Source of the DNA: Escherichia coli
GTDB taxonomy: Bacteria > Pseudomonadota > Gammaproteobacteria > Enterobacterales > Enterobacteriaceae
Length of the DNA: 64,000 bases
Reading direction: 5' to 3' (one strand)
Assembly (NCBI RefSeq): GCF_017348835.2
Contig: NZ_CP071375.1
Below are positions 1 through 42,569 of the stretch, in pieces. The position numbers and the translations under genes were made by a program. The notes under the pieces were generated by a model. That model was given only the letters and a program-made list of their open reading frames with translations. It was not told the DNA's origin and ran no database searches. The number at the start of each line of letters is the position of its first letter. Positions within the stretch are counted from its first letter, which is position 1.

Positions 1-798
1 AAGGTCGTAGGGCCAGATAATAGGCTTTGCTCTAATTTTGGTACTAGTTTTGCTGCTCCAATTGTGGCAAGTTTAGCTGCGCATACATGGCAGAGAATAG
101 CCACTAATTCAGACTTTAATGTTTCACCATCATTGATTAAAGCATTATTAATTCATTCCGCTCAATTATCTTCTCCTGATTACTCGCCAAGTGAAAGACG
201 CTATTTGGGAGCGGGAATTCCTAATGAGGTTATTGAGACCTTATATGATAGTGATGATAGGTTTACTCTGATTTTCCAAACATTCTTGGTTCCTGGGGTG
301 AGGTGGAGAAAGGAAAACTATCCCATACCATCGGCACTTATTCAAAATGGAAAATTTAAAGGTGAGATTGTAATTACTGCTGCATATGCACCACCACTAA
401 ACCCTAATGCCGGCAGTGAATATGTTCGCGCGAACGTAGAGCTAAGTTTTGGCTTAATTGAGAATAATACTATAAAAGGAAAAGTGCCTATGGAAGGAGA
501 AAACGGTCAATCTGGATATGAGAGAGCTCAAATTGAGCATGGTGGAAAGTGGTCACCAGTAAAAATTCATCGCAAGGCATTTAATAAAGGAATTACTTCG
601 GGTAACTGGGCTCTTCAGGCTAAAACAACGTTGAGAGCGAATGAACCGGCCTTAATGGAGCCTTTACCTGTAACTATTGTAGTAACTTTAAAATCATTAG
701 ATGGAAACACACAAGTTTATGCTGATGGTGTAAGAGCTTTAAATGCTAATAACTGGGCTCACTATCCATTGCCTGCTCGTGTGCCAGTTTCCGTATAA
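1..798 (+). CDS. S8 subtilisin-like serine peptidase, C-terminal part (5' end lies outside the window)
   Basis: Frame 1 is open from nt 1 and reads KVVGPDNRLCSNFGTSFAAPIVASLAAH; GTSFAAP is the subtilase catalytic-Ser motif. About 235 aa of C-terminal extension follow. The ORF track lists only 64..798. Confidence 0.7.
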   Translation, partial: KVVGPDNRLCSNFGTSFAAPIVASLAAHTWQRIATNSDFNVSPSLIKALLIHSAQLSSPDYSPSERRYLGAGIPNEVIETLYDSDDRFTLIFQTFLVPGVRWRKENYPIPSALIQNGKFKGEIVITAAYAPPLNPNAGSEYVRANVELSFGLIENNTIKGKVPMEGENGQSGYERAQIEHGGKWSPVKIHRKAFNKGITSGNWALQAKTTLRANEPALMEPLPVTIVVTLKSLDGNTQVYADGVRALNANNWAHYPLPARVPVSV

Positions 799-812
799 CA
801 ACTATATAAATC

Positions 813-840
813 AAACCCGCTGTAGCGGGTTTGATTTATT
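813..840 (+). terminator. Rho-independent terminator after the peptidase gene
   Basis: GC hairpin aacccgc-tgta-gcgggtt followed by a T-rich tract. Confidence 0.5.
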
Positions 841-1214
841 TGTGGGTGTGTTTTATAAAAATACCGCCCATACACAACAAAATACAAAAAGTATTACAGA
901 TAAAAAAGGAGCGTAATGTGCAGATTTGTTGTTTTCCATATTTACTCACCTTAATATGATTAATCCTGATAAGATTGTTATTTCAGCGGTTTTCAAATGA
1001 GATATTATGCTAATCTGGCAGATTTGCATAACATTAAAATTTAATTTGTCTAACCGCTTTTAATAATAAGCGTTGTATTTTTATCCCAGCAATCTATTGT
1101 TTGATTTTTATTCCATCAATGTGGGGGCTTTACACTGGAACCAGTTTATTTATACTTTATACGTCAGCCTGAACAACTGGCATCTGCTGCACTGCGCCAT
1201 CGAGAGATTGAGAA

Positions 1215-1814
1215 ATGGCGCATATACAACTGGTCAAACAAACCTCTTCTGGTTTACTTCTCCCGGCGACGCCGGAGAGTTGCGATTTTCTGCATCAAAT
1301 CAAAATAGGTGAGTGGATACACGCAGACTTTAAGCGTGTGCGTAACTACGCATTCCACAAGCGTTTTTTCAAACTCCTGCAACTGGGATTCGATTACTGG
1401 ACTCCGGTCGGTGGGGCGATCACGCCTCGCGAACGAGAACTGCTGTCTGGTTTCGTGGATTACCTGTGCGAATCAGTTGGTCGGGAACACACATCAGCCC
1501 TGAGTGATGCCGCAGAGCAATACCTTAACACCGTTGCGACTCGTAGAACCCGGGATACGGCGTTGCTAAAGTCGTTTGAGGCTTTCCGCGAGTGGGTAAC
1601 CATTCAGGCCGGATTTTACACCGAGCATATTTATCCGGACGGTAGCCGTGGGCGTCGGGCAAAATCCATCGCTTTTGCGAATATGGACGAAGTCGAGTTT
1701 CAGCAGGTTTATAAATCTGTACTGAATGTGCTGTGGAACTGGATTCTGTTCCGTAAATTCTCCTCTCAGGAGGAAGTTGAAAATGTGGCCGCACAACTAC
1801 TGGAGTTTGCGTAA
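1215..1814 (+). CDS. Lambdoid prophage nin-region protein (DUF1367-like)
   Basis: 199-aa ORF directly upstream of and coupled to the YbcO-like and Q genes; the family assignment is from memory. Confidence 0.5.
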   Translation: MAHIQLVKQTSSGLLLPATPESCDFLHQIKIGEWIHADFKRVRNYAFHKRFFKLLQLGFDYWTPVGGAITPRERELLSGFVDYLCESVGREHTSALSDAAEQYLNTVATRRTRDTALLKSFEAFREWVTIQAGFYTEHIYPDGSRGRRAKSIAFANMDEVEFQQVYKSVLNVLWNWILFRKFSSQEEVENVAAQLLEFA

Positions 1815-2104
1815 TGGTGAATTTACGTAAAGCGGCTAAAGGCCAGATGTGCCAGATCAGAATCCCTGGCTACTGCAATCACAATCCCGAAACCTCTGTG
1901 CTGGCGCATTACAGGCTGGCGGGGACGTGCGGAACAGCGACAAAACCACACGATATGCAGGCGGCGATAGCCTGTAGCTCATGCCACGATCTAATCGACG
2001 GGCGGGTAAAAACCAGCGATTACACCAAAGAAGAATTGCGCCTGATGCATGCTGAAGGGGTTTTTCGCACACAAGAAATCTGGAGAAAGAAAGGTCATTT
2101 ATGA
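1814..2104 (+). CDS. YbcO-like prophage nuclease (DUF1364)
   Basis: 96 aa with the Cys-rich motif CQIRIPGYCNHNPETSVLAH...ACSSCHD, resembling DLP12 YbcO; the start overlaps the upstream stop. Confidence 0.65.
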   Translation: MVNLRKAAKGQMCQIRIPGYCNHNPETSVLAHYRLAGTCGTATKPHDMQAAIACSSCHDLIDGRVKTSDYTKEELRLMHAEGVFRTQEIWRKKGHL

Positions 2105-2643
2105 TTTACCCAACGAATACAGGAAAAAGCGGAGAACACCTTCGCCTCACCACGCTGGAAAGTGTCTGGATTCAGGGAAAACTACGTATGTGGGGGCGCT
2201 GGTCGTATATTGGCGGTGGCAGGTCAGGGAATATGTTCAATCAGTTGTTGGCATCCAAAAAACTGACGAAAACAGCCATTAATGAAGCCCTGCGCAGAAT
2301 GAAAAAAGCGGGAATAGAGAAAGCTGAGCTGGAAGCGTTTTTGCGAGAGATGATCAACGGCAAGCAAAAGAGCTGGCTGGCGCATTGTACTGATGCAGAG
2401 GCGTTATGTATTGATCGAGTCATAAGTGAGGTGCTGGCAGAGCATCCAGGATTGATTTGCATTCTCCGGCAACGCTATGAAGGGCGGGGGATGGCTAAGC
2501 GCAAAATGGCTGAATTGCTAAATGATGCACACCCAGAGTGGTGTTTTAGCACATGCGAAAAACGGATTGCTAATTGGTTAGCTGTTGCTGAGTATGCCCT
2601 ATATATTCCCATGCGTGAATCATTTGCTGAGAAAATGGCTTGA
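2101..2643 (+). CDS. Late-gene antiterminator Q-like protein
   Basis: 180-aa ORF overlapping the ybcO-like stop (ATGA), upstream of a terminator and of a phage-21-type lysis cassette; the call rests mainly on position. Confidence 0.5.
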   Translation: MIYPTNTGKSGEHLRLTTLESVWIQGKLRMWGRWSYIGGGRSGNMFNQLLASKKLTKTAINEALRRMKKAGIEKAELEAFLREMINGKQKSWLAHCTDAEALCIDRVISEVLAEHPGLICILRQRYEGRGMAKRKMAELLNDAHPEWCFSTCEKRIANWLAVAEYALYIPMRESFAEKMA

Positions 2644-2723
2644 TTTCTTACGTATAAACTGCTTCAATTTTGCTATGCTTCGCAAAGCTGTATCGCGAGG
2701 CGGATTGCAGACATGGACATCGT

Positions 2724-2750
2724 AAAAAAACCGCTTAATGCGGTTTTTTT
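2724..2750 (+). terminator. Rho-independent terminator downstream of Q (tR'-like)
   Basis: aaaaaaaccgc-ttaat-gcggttttttt: a short GC stem flanked by an A-run and a T-run. Confidence 0.6.
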
Positions 2751-3628
2751 ACGTCAGGAAAGCAGGGGAGAATGCTGCTAGTTGGGCAACTGGTCTTTCT
2801 GCTCCAAATTATAACAGAGACCAGTTATAGTTTCGGTGCTGTGTTTTTTTTACAATATTGTGATAACACATTGCTGGCGGGAGTTTTGATATTTCTTGGC
2901 AGGGGCTGATGATGCGTTATCCTGATGTCGTCAACTCATATAAAATGAGATGAGAGATCATTGCAGGGTGGTTTGTAATTCGCTGTTTAGCGGGACAATA
3001 TGTTGTCTGATACAAGACACCCGACGCCTCAGATTACTATAATAAAGACGAAGCATCCTTTGTATTGACCAACCGCCTGTTTAGGCGGTTCTTTCTGGGC
3101 TGGTTTATTGTATGCCAAATGATTATTAAAAAGGTTGTGTTAATAACAAAATCCGAAATAATATGCCTGCATATTTTTATCTTGCTTATATTCTGCATAT
3201 TGTGCATAGCAGGCTCATCCCTGCAATCAAAACTGTATGATGAGTATTTTTTGTTTTCCTTTTTTCCAGTCATCTGATGATGACCTGCTTCTTTTTAATC
3301 CGGATCGACATCAGTTTTTTAAGATAATTCCTGCGAGTTATATGCATAAATGCCACAAACTCCGCATTTTATGTGGTTGGGAGTTGCCGGGCGCGCAGTG
3401 AGTTTGCTAAGAAAACTCCTGCATGGTGAATCCCCCTGTGCGGTGGGGTGATACCATTAACCTTTTCTGTCGCCGACAGGTATCACGAACATTTTGTTCA
3501 CCGGGAGGCACCCGGCACCATGCACTTCAATAGATTCTCTCCACATTATGGATATTCTTTCAGAATATCCCACGCAGACTTTGTGTAAATGTTAACAAAT
3601 GTGCGTTTTATTTGATCTGATTCGCTGT

Positions 3629-3658
3629 TTGAGCGTCCAAAACAACGGTATATATAAT
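3629..3658 (+). promoter_or_regulatory. Sigma70-like promoter for the lipoprotein moron
   Basis: TTGAGC (3629-3634), 18-nt spacer, TATAAT (3653-3658), about 30 nt upstream of the 3688 start; SD gagga lies before the ATG. Confidence 0.4.
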
Positions 3659-3687
3659 CCTTTACTATATGACATATGTGAGGAAAA

Positions 3688-4116
3688 ATGGGTTTTCGTA
3701 GCGCATCAATTCTTACGTTGATTATTAGTGGGATTATTATCGGGTGCACTGATGCTGTATCGACAAATTATCATGACCGTACATCATATTACTCCGATAA
3801 AGCAATAGAGACACAGTATGTGAGTTCATCTGAACGTACTTCTGATGTTAGTGAGGATATCCGTCTGTATGCCCATCAAATCAAGAGCGCCATCGAAAAA
3901 CAGTTCGGGGATGCGAGTAAGTATTCAGGAAAAGAGTGTACACTGAGAATGCATATGGCCCCGAATGGCCTTCTACTGGAGGTTAAAAGAGAAAGTGGAG
4001 ACCTCGATTTATGTCGTGAAGCGATGAATGCGATAAAGAATGCTGATATACCTGCCCCCCCTTCGCCGGAAGTATATAAAGTATTTCAAAATGGGGTGCT
4101 GGATTTTAAACCCTGA
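3688..4116 (+). CDS. Outer-membrane lipoprotein with a TolA C-terminal domain III-like domain (moron gene 1)
   Basis: Signal peptide with lipobox IIGC followed by Thr at +2. The C-terminus YAHQIKSAIEKQFGDASKYSGKECTLRMHMAPNGLLLEVKRESGDLDLC...PAPPSPEVYKVFQNGVLDFKP parallels the TolA C-terminus (YAGQIKSAIESKF...GKTCTLRIKLAPDGMLLDIK...PKPPSQAVYEVFKNAPLDFKP, recalled from memory). Confidence 0.75.
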   Translation: MGFRSASILTLIISGIIIGCTDAVSTNYHDRTSYYSDKAIETQYVSSSERTSDVSEDIRLYAHQIKSAIEKQFGDASKYSGKECTLRMHMAPNGLLLEVKRESGDLDLCREAMNAIKNADIPAPPSPEVYKVFQNGVLDFKP

Positions 4117-4266
4117 TATTTATTGTTTTGTAATAAACGGTTTCGGCTTAGGTTTGTTCTGACACAGCTACGGCACTGAGCTAAATTTAGCGGATAGTCA
4201 GCTCTGAGCCAGTGGCGGACGTAACAACTACTATTGCTGAGATTTTAATGGATTGAGGAGCAAGAA

Positions 4267-4662
4267 GTGGGATTAAAGAAAATCGTTATGTTGACTTTTT
4301 GGGTCGGTTTTGTTGCGGGATGCACACCTTTACACCCTTCAGATTGCCACAAAACTACTGCTACAGGTAGTTGCAGTTCAGGACGCTGGGATGATCAGGA
4401 TGAATGGGGGGCGCAAGCGCGGGGAATCAGAGCTGCAATTAATGCCAAACTTGATGAGCCGCATAACTGGAAAGGGAAAAAATGCAGGTTGCATATGGAA
4501 TTCTCTCAGGATGGCACGGCGTTAAAAATATCTACCAGTAACGGTGATAAAGCCTATTGCGAAGCGATAAAGTCCGCAGCTCATAAAGCCAAATTTCCGG
4601 CCTTCAACAATCCGGAAGTCTACAGAGATTTTCAGAAATCTGGCTTTGACATGCGAGGTTAG
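4267..4662 (+). CDS. Second, divergent TolA domain III-like lipoprotein (moron gene 2)
   Basis: GTG start with SD gaggag; signal peptide MGLKKIVMLTFWVGFVAGC (lipobox VAGC, Thr at +2); C-terminal KGKKCRLHMEFSQDGTALKIS...FPAFNNPEVYRDFQ follows the same pattern as gene 1 and TolA-III. Confidence 0.65.
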   Translation: MGLKKIVMLTFWVGFVAGCTPLHPSDCHKTTATGSCSSGRWDDQDEWGAQARGIRAAINAKLDEPHNWKGKKCRLHMEFSQDGTALKISTSNGDKAYCEAIKSAAHKAKFPAFNNPEVYRDFQKSGFDMRG

Positions 4663-4787
4663 CTCTTCAATTACTATATCTCATTCATAGCAAACTGACA
4701 GATTTGATGATGTTCTATATACGAAACCTGTGATGTCAAGTCTGAGCTAATACAAATAAACATAATATCAGAGAAATACATTTTATT

Positions 4788-4811
4788 AGCTCGCTACGGC
4801 GAGCTTTTTAT
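4788..4811 (+). terminator. Rho-independent terminator closing the lipoprotein moron
   Basis: agctcgc-tacg-gcgagct followed by ttttta. Confidence 0.55.
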
Positions 4812-4913
4812 ATTGCATCGTCTCCAGCATATATATCAATTAAGGCTCTGATTGATGTGTCTGAAAGCCTACACATAATAACTATGCCATCCGTTCCGTG
4901 CGGAGGTGAGGCT

Positions 4914-5129
4914 ATGAAATCCATGGACAAAATTTCAACAGGCATTGCCTACGGCACCTCCGCAGGCAGTGCTGGCTACTGGTTTTTACAGTTGCTCGAT
5001 AGAGTAACTCCGTCACAGTGGGCTGCAATCGGTGTGCTGGGTAGTCTGGTATTTGGCCTGCTGACGTACCTGACAAACCTTTATTTCAAGATTAAAGAAG
5101 ATAAGCGCAAGGCTGCGAGAGGTGAATAA
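4914..5129 (+). CDS. Phage-21-type class II holin (pinholin S21-like) with a dual-start motif
   Basis: [26 protein letters not shown]... 71 aa from Met 4914; the MKSMDK arrangement matches the S21 antiholin/holin dual start; SD ggaggtgag. The ORF track extends upstream to 4857. Confidence 0.8.
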
Positions 5130-5626
5130 TGCCTCCATCATTACGAAAAGTCGTTGCTGCTGCTATTGGTGGCGGAGCAATTGCTATAGCATCAGTGTTA
5201 ATCACTGGCCCAAGTGGTAACGATGGTCTGGAAGGTGTCAGCTACATACCATACAAAGATATTGTTGGTGTATGGACTGTATGTCACGGGCATACAGGAA
5301 AAGACATCATGCTCGGTAAAACGTATACCAAAGCAGAATGCAAAACACTCTTGAATAAAGACCTTGCCACTGTCGCCAGACAAATTAACCCGTACATCAA
5401 AGTCGATATACCGGAAACAACGCGCGGCGCTCTTTACTCATTCGTTTACAACGTGGGTGCTGGCAATTTCAGAACATCGACGCTTCTTCGCAAAATAAAC
5501 CAGGGCGATATCAAAGGCGCATGTGATCAGCTACGTCGCTGGACATATGCTGGCGGTAAGCAATGGAAAGGTCTCATGACTCGTCGTGAGATTGAGCGTG
5601 AAATCTGTTTGTGGGGTCAGCAATGA
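5129..5626 (+). CDS. SAR endolysin (R21-like lysozyme)
   Basis: 165 aa with an N-terminal hydrophobic signal-anchor-release segment ([20 protein letters not shown]) followed by a lysozyme domain; start overlaps the holin stop (taATG). Confidence 0.8.
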
Positions 5627-6087
5627 ACAGAGTAACCGCGATTATCTCCGCTCTGGTTATCTGCATCATCGTCTGCCTGTCATGGGCTGTTAATCATTAC
5701 CGTGATAACGCCATTACCTACAAAGCCCAGCGCGACAAAAATGCCAGAGAACTGAAGCTGGCGAACTCGACAATTACTGACATGCAGGTGCGCCAGCGTG
5801 ATGTTGCTGCGCTCGATGCAAAATACACGAAGGAGTTAGCTGATGCGAAAGCTGAAAATGATGCTCTGCGTGATGATGTTGCCGCTGGTCGTCGTCGGTT
5901 GCACATCAAAGCAGTCTGTCAGTCAGTGCGTGAAGCCACCACCGCCTCCGGCGTGGATAATGCAGCCTCCCCCCGACTGGCAGACACCGCTGAACGGGAT
6001 TATTTCACCCTCCGGGAACGACTGGTAATGATGCAGGCCCAACTTGAAGGTGCTCAGCAATACATAACCGAGCAGTGTTTAAAGTAA
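5623..6087 (+). CDS. Rz i-spanin
   Basis: [47 protein letters not shown]... is close to lambda Rz; start overlaps the endolysin stop. Confidence 0.85.
5843..6028 (+). CDS. Rz1 o-spanin lipoprotein, embedded in the +1 frame of Rz
   Basis: [24 protein letters not shown]...[16 protein letters not shown]: lipobox plus Pro-rich region, fully nested inside Rz as in lambda. Confidence 0.85.
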
Positions 6088-6224
6088 AATCTTAACTACA
6101 ATATGATTCATTTTGATGATTGTTTCATAAGGAACAGTGAAGTAAGATCTAAGAGGAGTTAAATTTTATACAGTATAATCATAATATTGCAGCAAGGTGG
6201 TTATAATTGAAAGAATATTTAGAT

Positions 6225-7682
6225 ATGAATACATCTCATGTAAGAGTTGTTACTCATATGTGTGGGTTCCTGGTTTGGCTCTATAGTCTTTCAATGTTGC
6301 CACCAATGGTTGTAGCATTGTTTTATAAAGAAAAAAGCCTGTTCGTTTTCTTTATAACTTTCGTTATATTTTTTTGCATTGGTGGCGGAGCGTGGTATAC
6401 AACTAAGAAATCTGGCATTCAATTACGTACCCGTGATGGGTTTATTATAATTGTAATGTTTTGGATTTTGTTTTCTGTTATTAGTGCATTCCCTTTATGG
6501 ATTGACTCAGAACTTAATTTAACGTTCATTGATGCTCTGTTTGAAGGGGTTTCTGGAATAACAACAACAGGAGCAACTGTAATTGATGATGTTAGTTCAT
6601 TACCTCGGGCATATTTGTACTATCGGTCACAGTTAAATTTTATAGGTGGTTTAGGAGTTATTGTTCTGGCGGTTGCTGTATTGCCATTATTGGGTATTGG
6701 TGGTGCAAAGCTTTATCAGTCAGAAATGCCGGGGCCATTTAAGGATGACAAACTCACTCCCCGCCTGGCCGATACGTCACGGACACTGTGGATAACTTAT
6801 TCTTTATTAGGTATTGCTTGTATTGTCTGTTATAGACTTGCAGGAATGCCTTTGTTTGATGCTATTTGTCACGGGATTTCCACAGTTTCGCTTGGTGGTT
6901 TCTCAACTCATAGCGAGAGTATCGGATATTTTAATAACTATTTGGTTGAGCTGGTGGCTGGTTCTTTTTCCCTGCTATCGGCTTTCAACTTCACTCTTTG
7001 GTATATTGTTATTAGCAGGAAAACGATAAAACCTTTAATCAGAGATATTGAACTTCGTTTCTTTCTGTTAATAGCCTTAGGGGTGATCATTGTTACCTCT
7101 TTCCAGGTCTGGCATATAGGTATGTATGACTTGCATGGAAGTTTTATTCATTCGTTTTTTCTTGCCAGCTCCATGCTCACTGATAATGGTTTAGCTACGC
7201 AGGATTATGCAAGTTGGCCCACGCATACGATAGTGTTTTTGCTGTTGTCAAGTTTCTTTGGGGGATGTATAGGTTCAACTTGTGGTGGAATTAAGTCACT
7301 TCGATTTCTTATACTTTTCAAACAAAGCAAACACGAGATAAATCAGCTTTCTCATCCCAGAGCGTTGTTGAGTGTAAATGTAGGAGGGAAGATAGTTACA
7401 GATCGTGTAATGAGGTCTGTATGGAGTTTCTTTTTTCTTTATACTCTCTTCACGGTGTTTTTTATACTGGTGTTAAATGGTATGGGATATGATTTTCTTA
7501 CATCATTTGCAACAGTGGCTGCATGTATTAATAATATGGGATTAGGTTTTGGGGCTACTGCATCGTCATTCGGAGTGCTTAATGACATTGCAAAATGTTT
7601 AATGTGCATAGCTATGATTCTTGGTCGCCTTGAAATTTATCCTGTTATTATATTGTTTTCAGGTTTTTTTTGGCGCTCCTAA
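6225..7682 (+). CDS. trkG: Prophage-encoded K+ uptake protein TrkG (TrkH paralogue)
   Basis: 485 aa from MNTSHVRVVTHMCGFLVWLYSLSMLPP; AT-rich gene, same position after Rz/Rz1 as in K-12 Rac. Confidence 0.9.
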   Translation: MNTSHVRVVTHMCGFLVWLYSLSMLPPMVVALFYKEKSLFVFFITFVIFFCIGGGAWYTTKKSGIQLRTRDGFIIIVMFWILFSVISAFPLWIDSELNLTFIDALFEGVSGITTTGATVIDDVSSLPRAYLYYRSQLNFIGGLGVIVLAVAVLPLLGIGGAKLYQSEMPGPFKDDKLTPRLADTSRTLWITYSLLGIACIVCYRLAGMPLFDAICHGISTVSLGGFSTHSESIGYFNNYLVELVAGSFSLLSAFNFTLWYIVISRKTIKPLIRDIELRFFLLIALGVIIVTSFQVWHIGMYDLHGSFIHSFFLASSMLTDNGLATQDYASWPTHTIVFLLLSSFFGGCIGSTCGGIKSLRFLILFKQSKHEINQLSHPRALLSVNVGGKIVTDRVMRSVWSFFFLYTLFTVFFILVLNGMGYDFLTSFATVAACINNMGLGFGATASSFGVLNDIAKCLMCIAMILGRLEIYPVIILFSGFFWRS

Positions 7683-7819
7683 TATATGGCTGATTTATAA
7701 TTGTGAGTTTAATATTATGTTGACTCACTCATTGATCCAATACCTAACTTTACCAGCAACACCTCCGTCCCCAGTAGCACTGGCTGCTGGGGTGCGTTTT
7801 ATTCATAAAGCAAGGCTGT

Positions 7820-19300: not shown

Positions 19301-19915
19301 GTTGAGCGCCCGGGCGCGATGAGCATCAATTTCGGCCTGCGGCATGAGATCAAGAATAGTGTCATCGGCCAGCGGGACAATTTTATTGATTTCGTGGGAC
19401 GTACGGAAACCATCAAAGAAATGAATAAATGGCACGCGGCTTTTCAGCGTCGCGATGTGCGAAATGAGAGCAAAGTCTTGCGCTTCCTGGACGTTTGCCG
19501 CACACAACATCGCGCAACCCGTCTGGCGCACCGCCATGACGTCGGAATGATCGCCAAAAATAGAGAGTGCATGTGTGGCAACGGTACGTGCCGCTACATG
19601 CAGGACAAACGGTGTGAGTTCGCCTGCCAGTTTGTACAGCGTCGGGATCATCAGCAGCAAACCCTGCGATGACGTAAACGATGTTGAAAGGGCACCCGTC
19701 TGCAAAGCGCCATGCACGGTAGCGATAGCACCCGCTTCCGACTGCATTTCAACCACGCGTGGTGTGTCTCCCCAAACGTTCTTCAAGCCGTTTCCGGCCC
19801 AGGCATCAGCCTGTTCTGCCATCGTGGAACTGGGGGTAATAGGGTAGATGGCGATAACTTCACTGGTGCGAAACGCCACCGAAGCAACCGCGCCATTACC
19901 GTCAATAGTAATCAT
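16391..19915 (-). CDS. ydbK: Pyruvate:flavodoxin/ferredoxin oxidoreductase
   Basis: 1174 aa with 4Fe-4S ferredoxin Cys motifs (CTQCNHCVAACP, CTGCNLCVEVCP) and TPP-binding regions. Confidence 0.95.
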   Translation of the reverse strand: MITIDGNGAVASVAFRTSEVIAIYPITPSSTMAEQADAWAGNGLKNVWGDTPRVVEMQSEAGAIATVHGALQTGALSTSFTSSQGLLLMIPTLYKLAGELTPFVLHVAARTVATHALSIFGDHSDVMAVRQTGCAMLCAANVQEAQDFALISHIATLKSRVPFIHFFDGFRTSHEINKIVPLADDTILDLMPQAEIDAHRARALNPEHPVIRGTSANPDTYFQSREATNPWYNAVYDHVEQAMNDFAAATGRQYQPFEYYGHPQAERVIILMGSAIGTCEEVVDELLTRGEKVGVLKVRLYRPFSAKHLLQALPGSVRSVAVLDRTKEPGAQAEPLYLDVMTALAEAFNNGERETLPRVIGGRYGLSSKEFGPDCVLAVFAELNAAKPKARFTVGIYDDVTNLSLPLPENTLPNSAKLEALFYGLGSDGSVSATKNNIKIIGNSTPWYAQGYFVYDSKKAGGLTVSHLRVSEQPIRSAYLISQADFVGCHQLQFIDKYQMAERLKPGGIFLLNTPYSADEVWSRLPQEVQAVLNQKKARFYVINAAKIARECGLAARINTVMQMAFFHLTQILPGDSALAELQGAIAKSYSSKGQDLVERNWQALALARESVEEVPLQPVNPHSANRPPVVSDAAPDFVKTVTAAMLAGLGDALPVSALPPDGTWPMGTTRWEKRNIAEEIPIWKEELCTQCNHCVAACPHSAIRAKVVPPEAMENAPASLHSLDVKSRDMRGQKYVLQVAPEDCTGCNLCVEVCPAKDRQNPEIKAINMMSRLEHVEEEKINYDFFLNLPEIDRSKLERIDIRTSQLITPLFEYSGACSGCGETPYIKLLTQLYGDRMLIANATGCSSIYGGNLPSTPYTTDANGRGPAWANSLFEDNAEFGLGFRLTVDQHRVRVLRLLDQFADKIPAELLTALKSDATPEVRREQVTALRQQLNDVAEAHELLRDADALVEKSIWLIGGDGWAYDIGFGGLDHVLSLTENVNILVLDTQCYSNTGGQASKATPLGAVTKFGEHGKRKARKDLGVSMMMYGHVYVAQISLGAQLNQTVKAIQEAEAYPGPSLIIAYSPCEEHGYDLALSHDQMRQLTATGFWPLYRFDPRRADEGKLPLALDSRPPSEALEETLLHEQRFRRLNSQQPEVAEQLWKDAAADLQKRYDFLAQMAGKAEKSNTD

Positions 19916-20188
19916 ATGACACCCTTACATTGCGCAAATGAGGGGCGCACGAAATTGCTGCGCGCCCAGTAGTAATCCTTCAATTTTAGCAAATGGCTTT
20001 CTTCTGCATTTTCGCTTTTGTGTCCCCCACATCAGCGTAATGAATGTTTTGATCAAACAGAGGGCAAAAAAATAGCCATAAAAAAGTAAAAATGCGGGGC
20101 AACGCGCAGGACAGCTCTCGACGTCGCCCTCTGTGCTGCCTATTATTTATGGCGGTGTCGTTTGGCTTGAAGATCAGAGGAAGAAAAG

Positions 20189-20455
20189 ATGCGAGCAGCG
20201 TTTTGGGTAGGGTGTGCCGCTTTATTGTTGTCGGCGTGTAGTAGTGAGCCTGTTCAGCAGGCGACTGCGGCGCACGTAGCGCCAGGTTTAAAAGCGTCGA
20301 TGTCCAGTAGTGGAGAAGCAAATTGTGCAATGATCGGCGGTTCGCTTTCTGTTGCCCGTCAACTGGATGGTACGGCGATTGGGATGTGTGCATTACCCAA
20401 CGGCAAACGCTGTAGCGAACAGTCACTTGCCGCCGGGAGCTGTGGCAGCTATTAA
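20189..20455 (+). CDS. ydbJ: Small lipoprotein YdbJ (DUF333)
   Basis: 88 aa with a signal peptide and lipobox LSAC. Confidence 0.8.
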   Translation: MRAAFWVGCAALLLSACSSEPVQQATAAHVAPGLKASMSSSGEANCAMIGGSLSVARQLDGTAIGMCALPNGKRCSEQSLAAGSCGSY

Positions 20456-20874
20456 TTCATTAAATCCGCCAGCTTATAAGTTAATGTCTGTTTCGCGGTC
20501 GCCAGCGTTAACTGGTTCGCGGTCAGATCCACTTGTGCACCTTCTTTCAGCATTTCGCTAATGGTGTTATCGAGTTCATTAAGCTGCGGGTTAGCGCACA
20601 TCATACGGGTCATTGCCAGCCCTTTGGCTGTCAGTTCACCATTAGACAGTTTGCCTTCACCGCTAAAGCGGTTACACATGCTGCCGGAAATCATCATTTT
20701 TTCACCAAAGCTGATTTCTGGCGGATTTTTATCGCTGGTCACGGGCTTACCGTTTACGCTTTCCAGCACAAAGCGATGATGCTGTAGCTGTTCTGGCGTA
20801 ACAGCAATTTTGTCATTACTTACACATCCCGCCATCAGCAGGCTTAGCGCAACAAACGCGGCTACTTTCTTCAT
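20452..20874 (-). CDS. hslJ: Heat-shock lipoprotein HslJ
   Basis: 140 aa from MKKVAAFVALSLLMAGC; META-domain lipoprotein. Confidence 0.85.
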   Translation of the reverse strand: MKKVAAFVALSLLMAGCVSNDKIAVTPEQLQHHRFVLESVNGKPVTSDKNPPEISFGEKMMISGSMCNRFSGEGKLSNGELTAKGLAMTRMMCANPQLNELDNTISEMLKEGAQVDLTANQLTLATAKQTLTYKLADLMN

Positions 20875-20984
20875 TGTGGTTCTCAATTACAGTTTCTGAC
20901 TCAGGACTATTTTAAGAATAGAGAATGAAAGGTCATTGGGGATTATCTGAATCAGCTCCCCTGGAATGCAGGGGAGCGGCAAGA

Positions 20985-21974
20985 TTAAACCAGTTCGTTC
21001 GGGCAGGTTTCGCCTTTTTCCAGATTGCTTAAGTTTTGCAGCGTAGTCTGAGAAATACTGGTCAGAGCTTCTGCTGTCAGGAATGCCTGGTGCCCGGTAA
21101 ACAGCACGTTGTGGCAGGCAGACAGGCGACGGAATACGTCATCCTGAATTACGTCATTGGATTTATCTTCAAAGAACAGATCGCGTTCGTTCTCATACAC
21201 GTCCATACCCAACGAACCAATTTTCTGATTTTTCAGCGCTTCAATTGCTGCCTGAGAATCAATCAATGCACCGCGACTGGTATTGACGATCATCACGCCA
21301 TTTTTCATCTGATCGAAGGCGGCTTCGTTCAACAGATGGTAGTTTTCCGGTGTCAGCGGGCAGTGCAGAGAGATAACGTCAGATTCAGAGAACAGGGTTG
21401 GCAGATCGACATACTCCACACCGAGTTCCAGCGCCGCTGCACTTGGATACGGATCGAACGCCAGCAGACGCATACCAAAACCTTTCAGAATGCGCAGCAT
21501 CGCCACACCGATTTTACCGGTACCGATAACGCCTGCCGTTTTGCCATACATAGTAAAGCCGGTCAGACCTTCCAGAGAGAAGTTAGCGTCACGGGTACGC
21601 TGATACGCGCGGTGAATACGGCGGTTCAGCGTCATCATCATACCGATGGCGTGTTCAGCAACGGCCTCTGGATCATAGGCTGGAACACGGACTACTTTCA
21701 GCCCCAGTTCTTTTGCCGCGTCAAGGTCGACGTTATTGAAACCGGCACAGCGCAGGGCGATATATTTAACGCCGTGCTTTTTCAGCTCTTCCAGCACCGG
21801 GCGGCTGCCGTCATCGTTTACGAAAATACATACCGCTTCGCAGCCATTGGCAGTTTTAGCGGTTTTTTCCGTCAGCAGAAAGTCAAAAAATTCCAGCTCA
21901 AAGCCAAAGGACTCGTTCACCTGTTGCAGGTACTTCTTGTCGTACTGTTTTGTGCTATAAACGGCGAGTTTCAT
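20985..21974 (-). CDS. ldhA: Fermentative D-lactate dehydrogenase
   Basis: 329 aa, D-isomer-specific 2-hydroxyacid dehydrogenase with NAD-binding motif GVIGTGKIG. Confidence 0.95.
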   Translation of the reverse strand: MKLAVYSTKQYDKKYLQQVNESFGFELEFFDFLLTEKTAKTANGCEAVCIFVNDDGSRPVLEELKKHGVKYIALRCAGFNNVDLDAAKELGLKVVRVPAYDPEAVAEHAIGMMMTLNRRIHRAYQRTRDANFSLEGLTGFTMYGKTAGVIGTGKIGVAMLRILKGFGMRLLAFDPYPSAAALELGVEYVDLPTLFSESDVISLHCPLTPENYHLLNEAAFDQMKNGVMIVNTSRGALIDSQAAIEALKNQKIGSLGMDVYENERDLFFEDKSNDVIQDDVFRRLSACHNVLFTGHQAFLTAEALTSISQTTLQNLSNLEKGETCPNELV

Positions 21975-22181
21975 AAGACTTTCTCCAGTGATGTTGAATC
22001 ACATTTAAGCTACTTAAAATATTTTACAAAATTTCAAATTTAATTGAAAGCTATGGCGATATTGAAAAATTCATCAACAACTATGCTTAGTGTAGGCGCA
22101 ACCTTCAACTGAACGGTTAAACATGCCACAATACCCGTATTGAATGCTTAATTTTTCGCTAAATCAGGATATTAACTACCC

Positions 22182-24821
22182 ATGCTGGGTAAATATAAAG
22201 CCGTTCTCGCGCTGTTATTACTGATTATTCTTGTGCCGTTGACGCTGCTGATGACGCTCGGGCTGTGGGTTCCCACGCTGGCGGGCATCTGGCTACCGCT
22301 CGGGACACGTATTGCATTAGATGAAAGCCCACGCATTACGCGTAAAGGTTTAATCATTCCCGATCTCCGTTATCTGGTGGGAGATTGTCAGCTTGCGCAT
22401 ATCACCAACGCCAGCCTTTCACATCCGAGCCGCTGGTTATTGAACGTCGGCACGGTAGAACTTGATTCTGCTTGTCTGGCGAAATTGCCGCAGACGGAGC
22501 AATCGCCAGCTGCTCCAAAAACCCTCGCGCAGTGGCAGTCCATGCTGCCTAACACCTGGATCAATATCGATAAACTGATTTTTTCTCCCTGGCAGGAATG
22601 GCAGGGAAAACTCTCTCTCGCATTAACCTCCGATATCCAGCAACTGCGTTATCAGGGCGAAAAAGTTAAATTTCAAGGCCAGCTGAAAGGGCAACAACTT
22701 ACAGTCAGCGAACTGGATGTCGTCGCGTTTGAAAATCAGCCGCCGGTTAAACTGGTGGGGGAATTTACTATGCCGCTCGTGCCGGATGGACTTCCTGTAA
22801 GTGGTCATGCTACTGCGACGTTAAACTTGCCGCAGGAACCGTCACTGGTAGATGCCGAGCTGGACTGGCAGGAGAATAGCGGGCAATTGATTGTGCTGGC
22901 ACGGGATAACGGCGATCCGTTGCTCGATTTGCCGTGGCAAATTACGCGTCAACAATTGACCGTAAGCGATGGTCGCTGGAGCTGGCCGTATGCAGGTTTT
23001 CCTTTGAGTGGCCGACTGGGTGTCAAAGTCGACAACTGGCAGGCAGGGCTTGAGAACGCTCTGATCAGCGGACGACTTAGTGTGCTGACCCAGGGGCAAG
23101 CGGGTAAAGGCAACGCGGTGCTTAATTTTGGCCCAGGAAAATTAAGCATGGATAACAGCCAGCTGCCTCTGCAGCTGACCGGTGAAGCGAAACAGGCGGA
23201 CCTCATTTTATATGCCCGTTTACCTGCGCAGGTAAGTGGAAGTCTGTCTGACCCAACGCTGACCTTTGAGCCAGGCGCGTTATTTCGTTCAAAGGGAAGA
23301 GTCATCGATTCGCTGGACATCGATGAAATCCGCTGGCCTTTAGCGGGTGTAAAAGTGACCCAACGTGGTGTTGACGGACGTTTGCAGGCCATTTTGCAGG
23401 CGCATGAAAATGAACTGGGCGATTTCGTGCTGCATATGGATGGGCTGGCGAGTGATTTTCTCCCTGACGCTGGCCGCTGGCAGTGGCGCTACTGGGGAAA
23501 AGGGAGTTTTACACCGATGAATGCCACCTGGGATGTCGCAGGAAAAGGTGAGTGGCATGACAGCACGATTACGCTGACCGATCTCTCCACCGGTTTCGAC
23601 CAGTTACAATACGGTACGATGACGGTAGAAAAGCCGCGATTAATTCTCGACAAGCCCGTCGTCTGGGTACGTGACGCACAGCATCCCTCCTTCAGCGGCG
23701 CGCTGTCACTGGACGCCGGGCAAACGCTGTTCACTGGCGGCAGTGTGTTACCGCCATCAACCTTAAAATTTAGCGTCGATGGGCGCGATCCGACGTATTT
23801 CCTCTTTAAAGGCGATTTACATGCTGGTGAGATTGGCCCGGTTCGGGTAAATGGTCGCTGGGACGGTATTCGTCTGCGCGGTAACGCCTGGTGGCCTAAA
23901 CAATCACTGACTGTATTCCAGCCGCTGGTGCCACCCGACTGGAAGATGAACTTACGCGATGGTGAACTGTATGCTCAGATTGCATTTTCTGCTGCGCCTG
24001 AACAAGGATTCCGCGCGGGAGGGCACGGCGTGTTGAAAGGCGGTAGTGCCTGGATGCCAGATAATCAGGTTAACGGTGTCGATTTTGTCCTGCCTTTCCG
24101 TTTTGCCGATGGAGCCTGGCATCTGGGGACTCGCGGCCCCGTTACGTTGCGAATTGCCGAAGTGATTAATCTGGTGACAGCGAAAAATATTACGGCTGAT
24201 TTGCAAGGGCGTTATCCGTGGACTGAAGAAGAACCATTGCTGTTGACTGATGTTAGCGTCGATGTGTTAGGCGGTAACGTGCTGATGAAACAATTACGTA
24301 TGCCGCAACATGACCCGGCGCTGTTGCGGCTGAATAATCTCTCATCCAGCGAACTGGTTAGTGCCGTCAATCCGAAACAATTTGCCATGTCCGGGGCATT
24401 TAGTGGTGCATTGCCGTTATGGCTAAACAACGAAAAATGGATAGTGAAAGATGGTTGGCTGGCAAATAGCGGGCCAATGACCTTGCGGCTGGATAAAGAC
24501 ACCGCAGATGCGGTGGTGAAAGACAATATGACTGCGGGTTCAGCAATTAACTGGTTGCGCTATATGGAAATTAGCCGTTCATCGACAAATATTAATTTAG
24601 ATAATCTCGGTTTATTAACCATGCAGGCCAACATTACAGGTACCAGTCGCGTTGATGGTAAAAGCGGTACGGTAAACCTTAATTACCATCATGAAGAGAA
24701 TATTTTTACGCTGTGGCGCAGTTTACGCTTTGGCGATAATCTCCAGGCATGGTTGGAGCAGAACGCACGTCTGCCGGGAAATGACTGTCCGCAAGGAAAA
24801 GAGTGTGAGGAAAAACAATGA
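22182..24821 (+). CDS. ydbH: AsmA-family envelope protein YdbH
   Basis: 879 aa with an N-terminal membrane anchor; followed by coupled ynbE and ydbL as in K-12. Confidence 0.9.
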   Translation: MLGKYKAVLALLLLIILVPLTLLMTLGLWVPTLAGIWLPLGTRIALDESPRITRKGLIIPDLRYLVGDCQLAHITNASLSHPSRWLLNVGTVELDSACLAKLPQTEQSPAAPKTLAQWQSMLPNTWINIDKLIFSPWQEWQGKLSLALTSDIQQLRYQGEKVKFQGQLKGQQLTVSELDVVAFENQPPVKLVGEFTMPLVPDGLPVSGHATATLNLPQEPSLVDAELDWQENSGQLIVLARDNGDPLLDLPWQITRQQLTVSDGRWSWPYAGFPLSGRLGVKVDNWQAGLENALISGRLSVLTQGQAGKGNAVLNFGPGKLSMDNSQLPLQLTGEAKQADLILYARLPAQVSGSLSDPTLTFEPGALFRSKGRVIDSLDIDEIRWPLAGVKVTQRGVDGRLQAILQAHENELGDFVLHMDGLASDFLPDAGRWQWRYWGKGSFTPMNATWDVAGKGEWHDSTITLTDLSTGFDQLQYGTMTVEKPRLILDKPVVWVRDAQHPSFSGALSLDAGQTLFTGGSVLPPSTLKFSVDGRDPTYFLFKGDLHAGEIGPVRVNGRWDGIRLRGNAWWPKQSLTVFQPLVPPDWKMNLRDGELYAQIAFSAAPEQGFRAGGHGVLKGGSAWMPDNQVNGVDFVLPFRFADGAWHLGTRGPVTLRIAEVINLVTAKNITADLQGRYPWTEEEPLLLTDVSVDVLGGNVLMKQLRMPQHDPALLRLNNLSSSELVSAVNPKQFAMSGAFSGALPLWLNNEKWIVKDGWLANSGPMTLRLDKDTADAVVKDNMTAGSAINWLRYMEISRSSTNINLDNLGLLTMQANITGTSRVDGKSGTVNLNYHHEENIFTLWRSLRFGDNLQAWLEQNARLPGNDCPQGKECEEKQ

Positions 24822-34295: not shown

Positions 34296-35041
34296 ATGAA
34301 TCAGTTAACGGCTTACACCTTGCGCCTGGGCGATAACTGTCTGGTGCTCTCCCAGCTGTTGGGTGAATGGTGCGGTCATGCACCGGAACTGGAAATCGAT
34401 CTCGCACTGGCAAACATTGGCCTCGATTTATTAGGTCAGGCACGCAACTTCTTATCGTATGCCGCTGAATTAGCGGGAGAAGGCGATGAAGATCCCTGGC
34501 CTTCACCCGAGACGAGCGCCAGTTCAGCAACTTATTGTTGGTTGAACAACCAAACGGCAATTTTGCCGACACCATTGCACGCCAGTATTTCATCGATGCA
34601 TGGCATGTGGCGCTCTTTACCCGTCTGATGGAAAGCCGTGATCCGCAACTGGCAGCGATTTCTGCCAAAGCAATTAAAGAAGCGCGTTATCACCTGCGTT
34701 TTAGTCGTGGCTGGCTGGAGCGACTGGGCAATGGTACTGACGTATCAGGGCAAAAGATGCAGCAGGCCATCGACAAGTTGTGGCGTTTTACTGCCGAACT
34801 GTTCGATGCCGACGAGATTGATATTGCACTGAGTGAAGAGGGTATTGCGGTTGATCCACGCACTTTACGCGCAGCGTGGGAAGCCGAAGTTTTTGCCGGA
34901 ATCAACGAAGCCACATTGAACGTGCCGCAAGAGCAGGCGTATCGCACTGGCGGTAAAAAAGGACTGCATACCGAACACCTTGGGCCAATGCTGGCAGAAA
35001 TGCAGTATCTCCAGCGTGTCTTGCCCGGTCAGCAGTGGTAA
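34296..35041 (+). pseudogene. paaC: paaC disrupted by a 1-nt frameshift near 34494
   Basis: The N-terminal 66 codons (MNQLTAY...GEGDED) are in one frame and the remainder (LAFTRDERQFSNLLLVEQPNGNF...LPGQQW) in the +1 frame. The two pieces sum to exactly the 248-aa PaaC length if one base is restored at gat|ccctgg. The ORF track shows this as 34284..34628 plus 34535..35041. Confidence 0.75.
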
Positions 35042-41229: not shown

Positions 41230-41255
41230 GCATATCAACCTGCGAGTACCTTACA

Positions 41256-42569
41256 ATGATAACCAATACAAAGCTTGACCCGATTGAAACCGCGTCTGTT
41301 GATGAGTTACAGGCGTTGCAAACACAGCGTCTGAAATGGACGCTCAAACACGCGTATGAAAATGTGCCGATGTATCGGCGCAAATTCGACGCAGCAGGCG
41401 TACATCCTGATGATTTCAGGGAACTTTCAGACCTGCGTAAATTTCCCTGTACCACCAAACAGGATCTGCGCGACAACTATCCCTTCGACACCTTTGCCGT
41501 GCCGATGGAACAAGTGGTGCGCATTCATGCTTCTTCGGGAACCACAGGTAAACCGACAGTTGTCGGCTATACGCAAAACGATATTGATAACTGGGCCAAT
41601 ATTGTAGCGCGTTCGTTGCGTGCGGCGGGTGGCACGCCCAAAGACAAAATTCATGTTGCCTATGGTTACGGCCTGTTTACTGGTGGGCTGGGCGCGCACT
41701 ATGGTGCCGAACGTCTGGGCGCTACGGTGATCCCGATGTCTGGTGGGCAGACGGAAAAACAAGCGCAACTGATCCGCGATTTTCAACCAGATATGATCAT
41801 GGTTACGCCATCTTATTGCCTTAACCTGATTGAAGAGCTGGAGCGGCAGTTGGGCGGTGATGCCAGCGGTTGCTCGCTGCGGGTTGGAGTGTTTGGTGCT
41901 GAGCCGTGGACACAGGCCATGCGTAAAGAAATTGAGCGTCGCCTGGGGATCACCGCACTGGATATTTATGGCCTGTCAGAAGTGATGGGGCCGGGGGTGG
42001 CGATGTAGTGTCTGGAAACTACCGACGGCCCAACCATTTGGGAAGATCATTTCTATCCTGAAATTGTTAATCCTCATGACGGCACACCGCTTGCCGATGG
42101 TGAACATGGCGAACTGTTATTCACCACGCTGACCAAAGAAGCATTGCCGGTCATTCGTTACCGCACGCGTGATTTAACCCGACTGTTACCAGGAACGGCG
42201 CGGACTATGCGCCGCATGGATCGCATCAGCGGACGCAGCGATGACATGTTGATTATTCGCGGTGTAAATGTCTTTCCGTCACAACTGGAAGAAGAGATTG
42301 TCAAATTCGAACATTTATCGCCGCATTACCAACTGGAGGTGAACCGCCGGGGGCATCTTGATTCACTTTCTGTGAAAGTAGAGCTGAAAGAAAGCAGCCT
42401 GACATTGACGCATGAGCAGCGTTGCCAGGTGTGCCACCAGCTACGCCATCGGATTAAGTCGATGGTGGGGATTTCTACCGATGTGATGATCGTTAACTGT
42501 GGCAGTATCCCGCGTTCAGAAGGCAAGGCGTGTCGGGTGTTTGATCTGCGCAATATTGTTGGTGCCTGA
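41256..42569 (+). pseudogene. paaK: paaK (phenylacetate-CoA ligase) interrupted by an in-frame TAG at 42006-42008
   Basis: From MITNTKLDPIETAS the frame gives 437 codons in total, but codon ~251 is TAG (...GPGVAM*CLETTDGPTIW...). The rest of the gene continues in the same frame and matches PaaK, as listed in the ORF track (41172..42008 and 42144..42569). Confidence 0.75.

Follow-up and report, generated by a model that had tools for sequence, protein, structure and literature searches.

A sequence-intact phage 21-type lysis cassette, most likely silent, in a decayed Rac-family prophage of Escherichia coli

The lysis cassette described here, found in a stretch of 64,000 nucleotides of Escherichia coli DNA (referred to below as the window), is an ordinary, sequence-intact set of four lysis genes belonging to the E. 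coli Rac prophage family. We read it, with a probability of about 0.8, as a late lysis module native to a decayed Rac-family lambdoid prophage integrated at ttcA, and as most likely silent, because the immunity region and the early promoters have been deleted in this lineage and the normal route to the late antiterminator Q has been lost with them. Intact cassettes of the phage 21 type in defective lambdoid prophages are already well known, DLP12 being the textbook case. The significance of the present copy, which sits in a remnant that appears to have lost its regulatory switch, reaches little beyond annotation; in practical terms, the PGAP annotation of strain PE164 misses Rz and renders one TolA-like gene as a pseudogene.

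Four full-length genes form a lysis cassette of the phage 21 type

Four full-length open reading frames, S, R, Rz and Rz1, were found on the + strand between positions 4914 and 6087 (Table 1). Family E-values from 1e-19 to 1e-53 rule out chance for the four gene assignments, and the S, R, Rz and Rz1 proteins are 90%, 98%, 93% and 100% identical, respectively, to their phage 21 counterparts. The S stop codon and the R start codon have one base in common (TAATG, 5127-5131), and the R stop codon overlaps the Rz start codon as ATGA (5623-5626); both overlaps are those annotated in the phage 21 genome. An earlier note on this DNA, made from the letters alone, had described a complete phage 21-type lysis cassette consisting of a pinholin with the MKSMDK dual-start motif, a SAR endolysin, and Rz with a fully embedded Rz1, all of them intact and translationally coupled. 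Each of these components was recovered at full length at the positions given there, and the overlaps are present; the coupling itself we infer from these overlaps, which are compatible with it but stop short of proving it.

S begins with the residues M1-K2-S3-M4-D5-K6 (4914-4931) and thus possesses the Met1-Lys2-Ser3-Met4 dual-start motif, from which the use of both starts is predicted. The protein scores 120.9 bits (cut-off 26) against the Pfam family Phage_holin_2_1, "Bacteriophage P21 holin S" (PF04971), and is identical at 64 of 71 positions to S21-71 of the phage 21 antiholin/holin pair S21-71/S21-68, leaving seven differences. All four Gly/Ser zipper residues of the second helix (G40, G43, S44 and G48) are kept, and the hydropathy peak lies at residues 36-53, in line with the two transmembrane segments expected of a class II holin. 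In lambdoid phages whose genomes have been deposited (mEp460, ev207, the PhiR series and 683R6), the holins are 94-97% identical to S. By its likeness to the phage 21 protein, S is predicted to form a small depolarising channel that would need a SAR endolysin as its partner.

The R protein matches the Pfam family Phage_lysozyme (PF00959) with 154.8 bits, is identical to R21 at 162 of 165 positions and likewise to RrrD of K-12, and finds the solved structures 4zpu (RrrD) and 3hde/3hdf (R21), with an E-value of about 1e-110 for 4zpu and 3hde. Its catalytic triad, a Glu-8aa-Asp-5aa-Thr arrangement, is intact (E35, D44, T50). The N-terminus consists of a weakly hydrophobic Gly/Ala-rich segment that follows basic residues, and its sole change from R21 is A8V. 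Given this identity, release of R from the membrane and its activation upon depolarisation are predicted to proceed as in phage 21.

Rz scores 178.2 bits against the Pfam family Phage_lysis (PF03245) and shares 141 of 152 residues with phage 21 Rz; an N-terminal transmembrane segment (hydropathy peak at residues 4-20) and the conserved cysteines Cys99 and Cys152 are present. Three substitutions (A49S, A50T and M56V) are private to this protein, in that they are absent from the six other Rz sequences compared; these changes are conservative and map to the N-terminal half of the periplasmic domain, which is variable. Rz1 is encoded wholly within Rz in the +1 frame, scores 69.5 bits against the Pfam family Rz1 (PF06085), and is identical to phage 21 Rz1 at 57 of 57 positions across the aligned part. 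It contains a VVGC lipobox (Cys20) and Cys29, and is proline-rich with a PPPPP run. NCBIfam contained no specific model matching S, Rz, Rz1 or Q.

Table 1. Features of the lysis cassette and of the surrounding prophage remnant (positions are those of the window unless stated otherwise).
Feature	Position	Strand	Length	Remarks
Terminator 3' of iteS	802-845			Strong, bidirectional-looking; 5' of the nin-like genes and Q; -23.9 kcal/mol
Q-like late antiterminator candidate (DUF1133)	2101..2643	+	180 aa	Full length
Intrinsic terminator (tR'-like)	2721..2753	+		Starts 78 nt 3' of the Q stop
Intrinsic terminator	4788..4813	+		100 nt 5' of S; closes the TolA-like moron block; terminator scan
S Shine-Dalgarno sequence GGAGGTGA	4902-4909	+		5 nt 5' of the S start
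S, class II holin (pinholin), dual start	4914..5129	+	71 aa	
S, antiholin form	Met1 at 4914	+	71 aa	Predicted from the dual-start motif
S, holin form	Met4 at 4923	+	68 aa	Predicted from the dual-start motif
R, SAR endolysin, GH24 lysozyme	5129..5626	+	165 aa	
R, SAR segment	About residues 8-27 of R	+		Gly/Ala-rich, hydrophobic
Rz, inner-membrane spanin subunit	5623..6087	+	154 aa	
Rz1 Shine-Dalgarno sequence AAGGAG	5830-5835	+		
Rz1, outer-membrane lipoprotein spanin subunit	5843..6028	+	61 aa	
trkG, cargo gene	6225..7682	+		Directly 3' of the cassette; PE164 PGAP annotation
ParB-like ynaK'/tail-fibre' in-frame fusion	7820..9751	+	643 aa	Deletion scar

Comparison with the lysis modules of phage 21 and DLP12

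The phage 21 cassette S21-R21-Rz21/Rz1-21 and the cassette studied here share their four genes, the gene order, the one-base and the four-base overlap, and the MKSM dual start. They differ at the ends of both spanin genes, in the last approximately 25 codons for Rz and in the C-terminal residues for Rz1, where another allele is present (GNDW versus ERG), and in everything that surrounds them. In phage 21, S is preceded by pR' and tRNA genes, whereas TolA-like morons and a terminator are found at this position in the window; bor follows the cassette in phage 21 and trkG does so here; and the associated Q belongs to different subfamilies, namely Q21 in the phage and DUF1133 in the window.

The DLP12 module of K-12 (essD-rrrD-rzpD/rzoD), like the one described here, is a 21-type cassette that has stayed intact inside a defective lambdoid prophage, and its nucleotide sequence is 93.4% identical to window positions 4903-6077; PGAP has given the names essD, rrrD and rzoD to the genes of the PE164 cassette. 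However, DLP12 is a different prophage at a different chromosomal site, and experimental phenotypes are on record for its module, whereas the Rac cassette is known here from its sequence. The homology begins at 4903, in the ribosome-binding site of S and 11 nt 5' of its start codon, so that the upstream regulatory region is not shared. The S-R-Rz/Rz1 genes of DLP12 are regulated by Q (QuuD), RpoE and Hha and have been studied for their effects on the cell wall, on biofilms and on vesicles; deletion of the module raises vesicle production and does not lower it (PMC7918800). A search of the window for the sigma-E consensus (GAACTT-N15-17-TCNAA) gave no match. With homology that reaches no further 5' than the ribosome-binding site of S, and with this consensus absent, regulation of the DLP12 type cannot be assumed for the present cassette.

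The cassette resides in a Rac prophage that has lost its immunity and morphogenetic genes

Several observations identify the locus as the Rac prophage. The cassette lies beside trkG in an element that is integrated at ttcA and for which the annotation of strain PE164 lists intR, xisR, rcbA, ralR and recT; synteny with K-12 Rac extends on both sides of the cassette. Blastn comparison with K-12 Rac returned five blocks of 97-99.9% identity and two blocks, covering tail-fibre and tfa genes, of 92-96%. The window and the PE164 genome (NZ_CP114128.1) align with 0 mismatches over positions 1-26300 and with 3 over positions 26301-64000.

The early region is situated outside the window, and its absence is deduced from PE164, which stands three bases in 64 kb apart from the window and may be a different isolate. 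There, a block of K-12 Rac is missing that comprises the N-terminal two-thirds of recE, racC, ydaE, kilR, sieB, ydaF and ydaG, and the same deletion also takes racR (cI-like), ydaS (cro-like), ydaT (cII-like) and the 5'-most 89 nt of ydaU. Hence, the entire Rac immunity region and both early promoters, 5.3 kb in all, are gone from PE164. The junction, at which a recE' remnant meets the 5'-truncated ydaU, maps to positions 9760-9776 of the sequence L001, 5' of the window. In K-12, racR is reportedly essential as the repressor of ydaS/ydaT; its loss from PE164 is tolerable solely because the deletion took ydaS and ydaT as well.

A different deletion has shaped the Rac prophage of K-12. It runs from the middle of ydaW to the position corresponding to 5643 of the window, 20 nt into Rz, and has removed Q, S and R as well as the start of Rz, all of which the window keeps; conversely, K-12 Rac retains racR-ydaS-ydaT and some tail genes, unlike the PE164 lineage. 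Both elements represent the same prophage at the same ttcA site with the same Rz-trkG-ynaK junction, and window positions 5643-8073 are 99.4% identical between them. The end point of the K-12 deletion explains the rzpR pseudogene and the orphan rzoR gene that lie beside trkG in this strain; the rzpR/rzoR fragment is what remains there of a complete cassette of the 21 type.

On the 3' side of trkG, full-length Rac homology breaks off within the ParB-like gene, at position 8245, and is picked up again in a tail-fibre gene. The resulting in-frame fusion joins a ParB-like N-terminus to the C-terminal half of a tail-fibre protein, which contains collar and gp37_C domains, and PGAP renders it as two pseudogene fragments. 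This fusion and a tail-fibre assembly gene are all that is found between trkG and sitDCBA; terminase, portal, capsid and tail-shaft genes are missing altogether from the remnant, in agreement with the loss of morphogenetic genes that had been noted before.

The same cassette is common among E. coli genomes and occurs in complete Rac prophages

Among 5426 complete E. coli genomes, 1493 possess the Rz-trkG junction, and 674 have R, Rz and trkG in one contiguous block. The complete form of the cassette is therefore still found at the same trkG junction in about an eighth of complete E. coli genomes. Full-size Rac prophages have been described before (PMC5917428, citing Jobling 2016). One apparently full-length Rac is present in strain L725, whose EssD and RrrD proteins have the same accessions as those of PE164. 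The gene order in this prophage runs from recE by way of a repressor, a cro-like gene, ydaT and replication genes to DUF1367-YbcO-Q-like and two TolA-like genes; S, R, Rz and trkG come next, and behind them lie ParB and the terminase, portal, capsid and tail genes. Its late region is 98.46% identical to the window over 7.4 kb (positions 852-8245). S does not differ from the L725 copy by a single nucleotide, and R by 1. Eleven of the 12 cassette differences from L725 cluster at 5668-5864, in the N-terminal half of Rz, and probably represent a recombination patch.

The backbone DUF1367-YbcO-Q followed by S-R-Rz-trkG-ParB is shared by the window, L725 and vB_EcoS-683R6, and the last of these also has the iteA/iteS gene pair in common with the window. 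Unlike the present element, the full-length Rac-like prophages (L725, 683R6 and Rac-SA53) still have their genes for immunity, replication and terminase as well as those for heads and tails, and Rac-SA53 differs further in that an unrelated holin/endolysin set is present together with toxin genes. In the closest deposited lambdoid phage genome, the cassette DNA is about 97% identical. Strain E66 contains an S-R-Rz-trkG block of 97% identity (positions 19786-23332 of the sequence L007) in another, IS1-riddled prophage at ybhC/bio. Its location in a different prophage indicates that trkG moves among lambdoid prophages along with the lysis module.

A Q-like gene and three terminators precede the cassette

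The genes 5' of the cassette encode DUF1367 (NinB-like), YbcO and then a full-length DUF1133 protein that is probably Q, a remote homologue of Q21 and a predicted antiterminator. It scores 355.6 bits against the Pfam family DUF1133 and 25.1 bits, just below the cut-off of 26, against Phage_antitermQ (PF06530); a full-length match (E 4e-79) was obtained to PHROG 753, "anti-termination protein Q-like". The hhalign program aligned it with Q21 at 93.4% probability (E 2.4e-7) over 134 columns, nearly the full length, and phmmer gave a weak match (E 0.3) to Q21 PDB chains. An AlphaFold2 model built from a 17-sequence alignment (mean pLDDT 57.4, pTM 0.42) was too poor for a fold comparison. The gene is annotated as Q in the phages Rac-SA53 and vB_EcoS-683R6; among the papers searched, none mentions DUF1133. 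The intact Q that had been claimed for this prophage is thus present as a full-length Q-like gene.

A terminator made of a 14-bp perfect inverted repeat and a U-run follows Q (-19.7 kcal/mol, z -5.8), and 683R6 and Rac-SA53 have a terminator in the same place, conserved there by position and not by sequence. Such a terminator close behind the Q-like gene corresponds to the pR'-tR' layout known from lambdoid phages. A late promoter was sought between 2644 and 2720 and not located, and an alignment of the region downstream of Q with 683R6 and Rac-SA53, inspected for pR' and a Q-binding element, showed the terminator position alone to be conserved and contained no convincing -35/-10 pair. Over the putative leader, Rfam returned nothing beyond an isrK-like match below threshold (21.6 bits versus 50), and a repeat search from Q to S yielded, besides the terminator, short pairs at chance level.

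The spacer of 2.2 kb between this terminator and S holds an STnc100 match, two genes for TolA-type lipoproteins and a second terminator (-13.0 kcal/mol, z -3.5). Its last 1.4 kb (3497-4914) are 99.9% identical in phage mEp460_ev081, and the arrangement of the spacer therefore occurs in a deposited phage genome as well. The STnc100 match (a gammaproteobacterial sRNA family of Rfam; 3391-3577, + strand, 86.6 bits versus a gathering threshold of 47) lies in the non-coding part 3' of Q. The two TolA-like genes (3688-4116 and 4267-4662, both on the + strand) are small paralogous morons; their products have the lipoboxes IIGC and VAGC and a TolA C-terminal domain (82.6 and 54.6 bits against Pfam TolA), and both match PHROG 5772, a family of unknown function. 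PGAP calls the first a truncated tolA pseudogene, yet its open reading frame covers the entire PHROG profile. As a speculation, these proteins might mimic domain III of TolA and thereby block the entry of colicins or filamentous phages.

With terminators after iteS, after Q and before S, the cassette is shielded from read-through, and its transcription should depend on Q. Promoter-like hexamers were found at 1129-1156, 5' of the nin-like genes and Q. A promoter-like site (TTGATG-16-CATAAT) is present at 4852-4879, between the last terminator and S. Promoter-like matches numbered 14, against 9.7 +/- 2.2 in shuffled sequence, and are taken as no excess over the shuffles. The two sites leave room for weak Q-independent transcription. 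No terminator-like hairpin was found in the 51 nt after the Rz stop (6085-6135), which fold like shuffled sequence.

Predicted function and expression of the cassette

The lysis steps that the Rac cassette would carry out follow from the 90-100% identity of its products to characterised proteins, and the mechanism of 21-type lysis has been reviewed (PMC9636201, PMC6139136). Both the pinholin (68 aa) and the antiholin (71 aa) would be made from S by way of its two starts, the longer form, with its extra N-terminal lysine, delaying the channel step. The pinholin would build up and, at a set time, form small heptameric channels through which the inner-membrane potential collapses; depolarisation would then free the membrane-tethered R, allowing it to refold and to degrade the murein, and Rz/Rz1, spanning the periplasm, would finally disrupt the outer membrane. 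For S-R-Rz to be transcribed, RNA polymerase should need the help of the Q-like protein to pass from a promoter just behind Q through the terminators at 2721-2753 and 4788-4813.

The intactness of the cassette is most readily accounted for by two processes, the recent decay of a once-complete Rac prophage and recombination with other lambdoid phages. Its sequence differs very little from the copies in complete prophages and deposited phages, and its intactness therefore does not call for any special retained function. Such a function is what one would expect if the host had domesticated the module and expressed it at a low, host-controlled level for peptidoglycan turnover, vesicle control or biofilm formation. 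The DLP12 module, with its vesicle effect and its control by Q, RpoE and Hha (PMC7918800), provides a precedent, and the promoter-like site at 4852-4879 lies 3' of the last terminator. But the upstream regulatory region of DLP12 is not shared, the sigma-E consensus is absent from the window, and promoter-like matches are no more frequent than in shuffles; we thus regard domestication as unlikely. The pN/pS values of S and R against diverged homologues are low (0.07-0.19). We rejected them as evidence for domestication, because selection in active phages alone predicts low values for a cassette that is shared and recombines with such phages (94-97% identity to their copies), and because S and R are nearly identical to those of full-length Rac, which leaves too little decay time to judge selection.

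Distinctly unlikely, in our judgement, is a related possibility, namely that the cassette and trkG are transcribed independently of Q from the 4852-4879 site or are activated in trans by a heterologous Q of another prophage. Were this the case, a Rac remnant without immunity and virion genes would aid envelope turnover, vesicle control or altruistic lysis, and would constitute a second domesticated 21-type module beside that of DLP12.

The earlier note had also raised the prospect that, provided the upstream early region works, the cell could be prone to prophage-mediated lysis or vesicle release under SOS, a course of events in which DNA damage would activate the early region, the early region Q, and Q late transcription. 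The full-length Q-like gene, the terminated leader behind it and the intact cassette would fit such a scenario; Rac regulatory circuits work in strains that keep racR-ydaS-ydaT (PMC5917428), and the whole circuit is kept in strains such as L725. In PE164, however, the repressor, the cro-like and the cII-like genes and both early promoters are absent, the strong terminator after iteS stands in front of the nin-like genes and Q, and the DUF1133-type Q is present in a single copy, with no second one to act in trans. The prospect is therefore not supported: SOS-triggered lysis in the PE164 lineage appears unlikely from its gene content, and the scenario as such is, to our mind, very unlikely. The idea of vesicle release has already been put to the test with the homologous DLP12 module, whose deletion gave more vesicles, not fewer (PMC7918800).

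Least probable of all is a cassette whose frames are intact but whose function has been lost through missense changes or through loss of the promoter or the Q-binding site, for although the three private Rz substitutions, the seven differences of S from S21, a late promoter and Q-binding element that were not identified, and the missing PGAP call for Rz in PE164 could be taken in this sense, S and R have the same protein sequences as in L725, whose Rac is apparently complete, the functional residues (E35/D44/T50 of R, G40/G43/S44/G48 of S, C99/C152 of Rz and C20/C29 of Rz1) are all kept, and the Rz substitutions are conservative and fall in a variable region.

Other features of the window

The nin region of Rac carries as an insertion the anti-phage pair iteA/iteS, which encodes an ATPase and an S8 peptidase and is located at 64-798 (+ strand) of the window and at 12706-16099 of L001. 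At the right end of the Rac element, where K-12 has pinR-ynaE, the iron/manganese transporter operon sitDCBA is located on the - strand (10548-13732); its sitB gene (12256-12759) is truncated and annotated as missing the N-terminus. Within the tail-fibre assembly gene, Rfam reports a match to IS009 (10094-10292, + strand; 223 bits versus a gathering threshold of 117). Farther along, the PE164 annotation records a frameshift in paaC and an internal stop codon in paaK (window positions 34300-35040 and 41250-42560), and the phenylacetate degradation pathway is for this reason probably inactive in the PE164 lineage.
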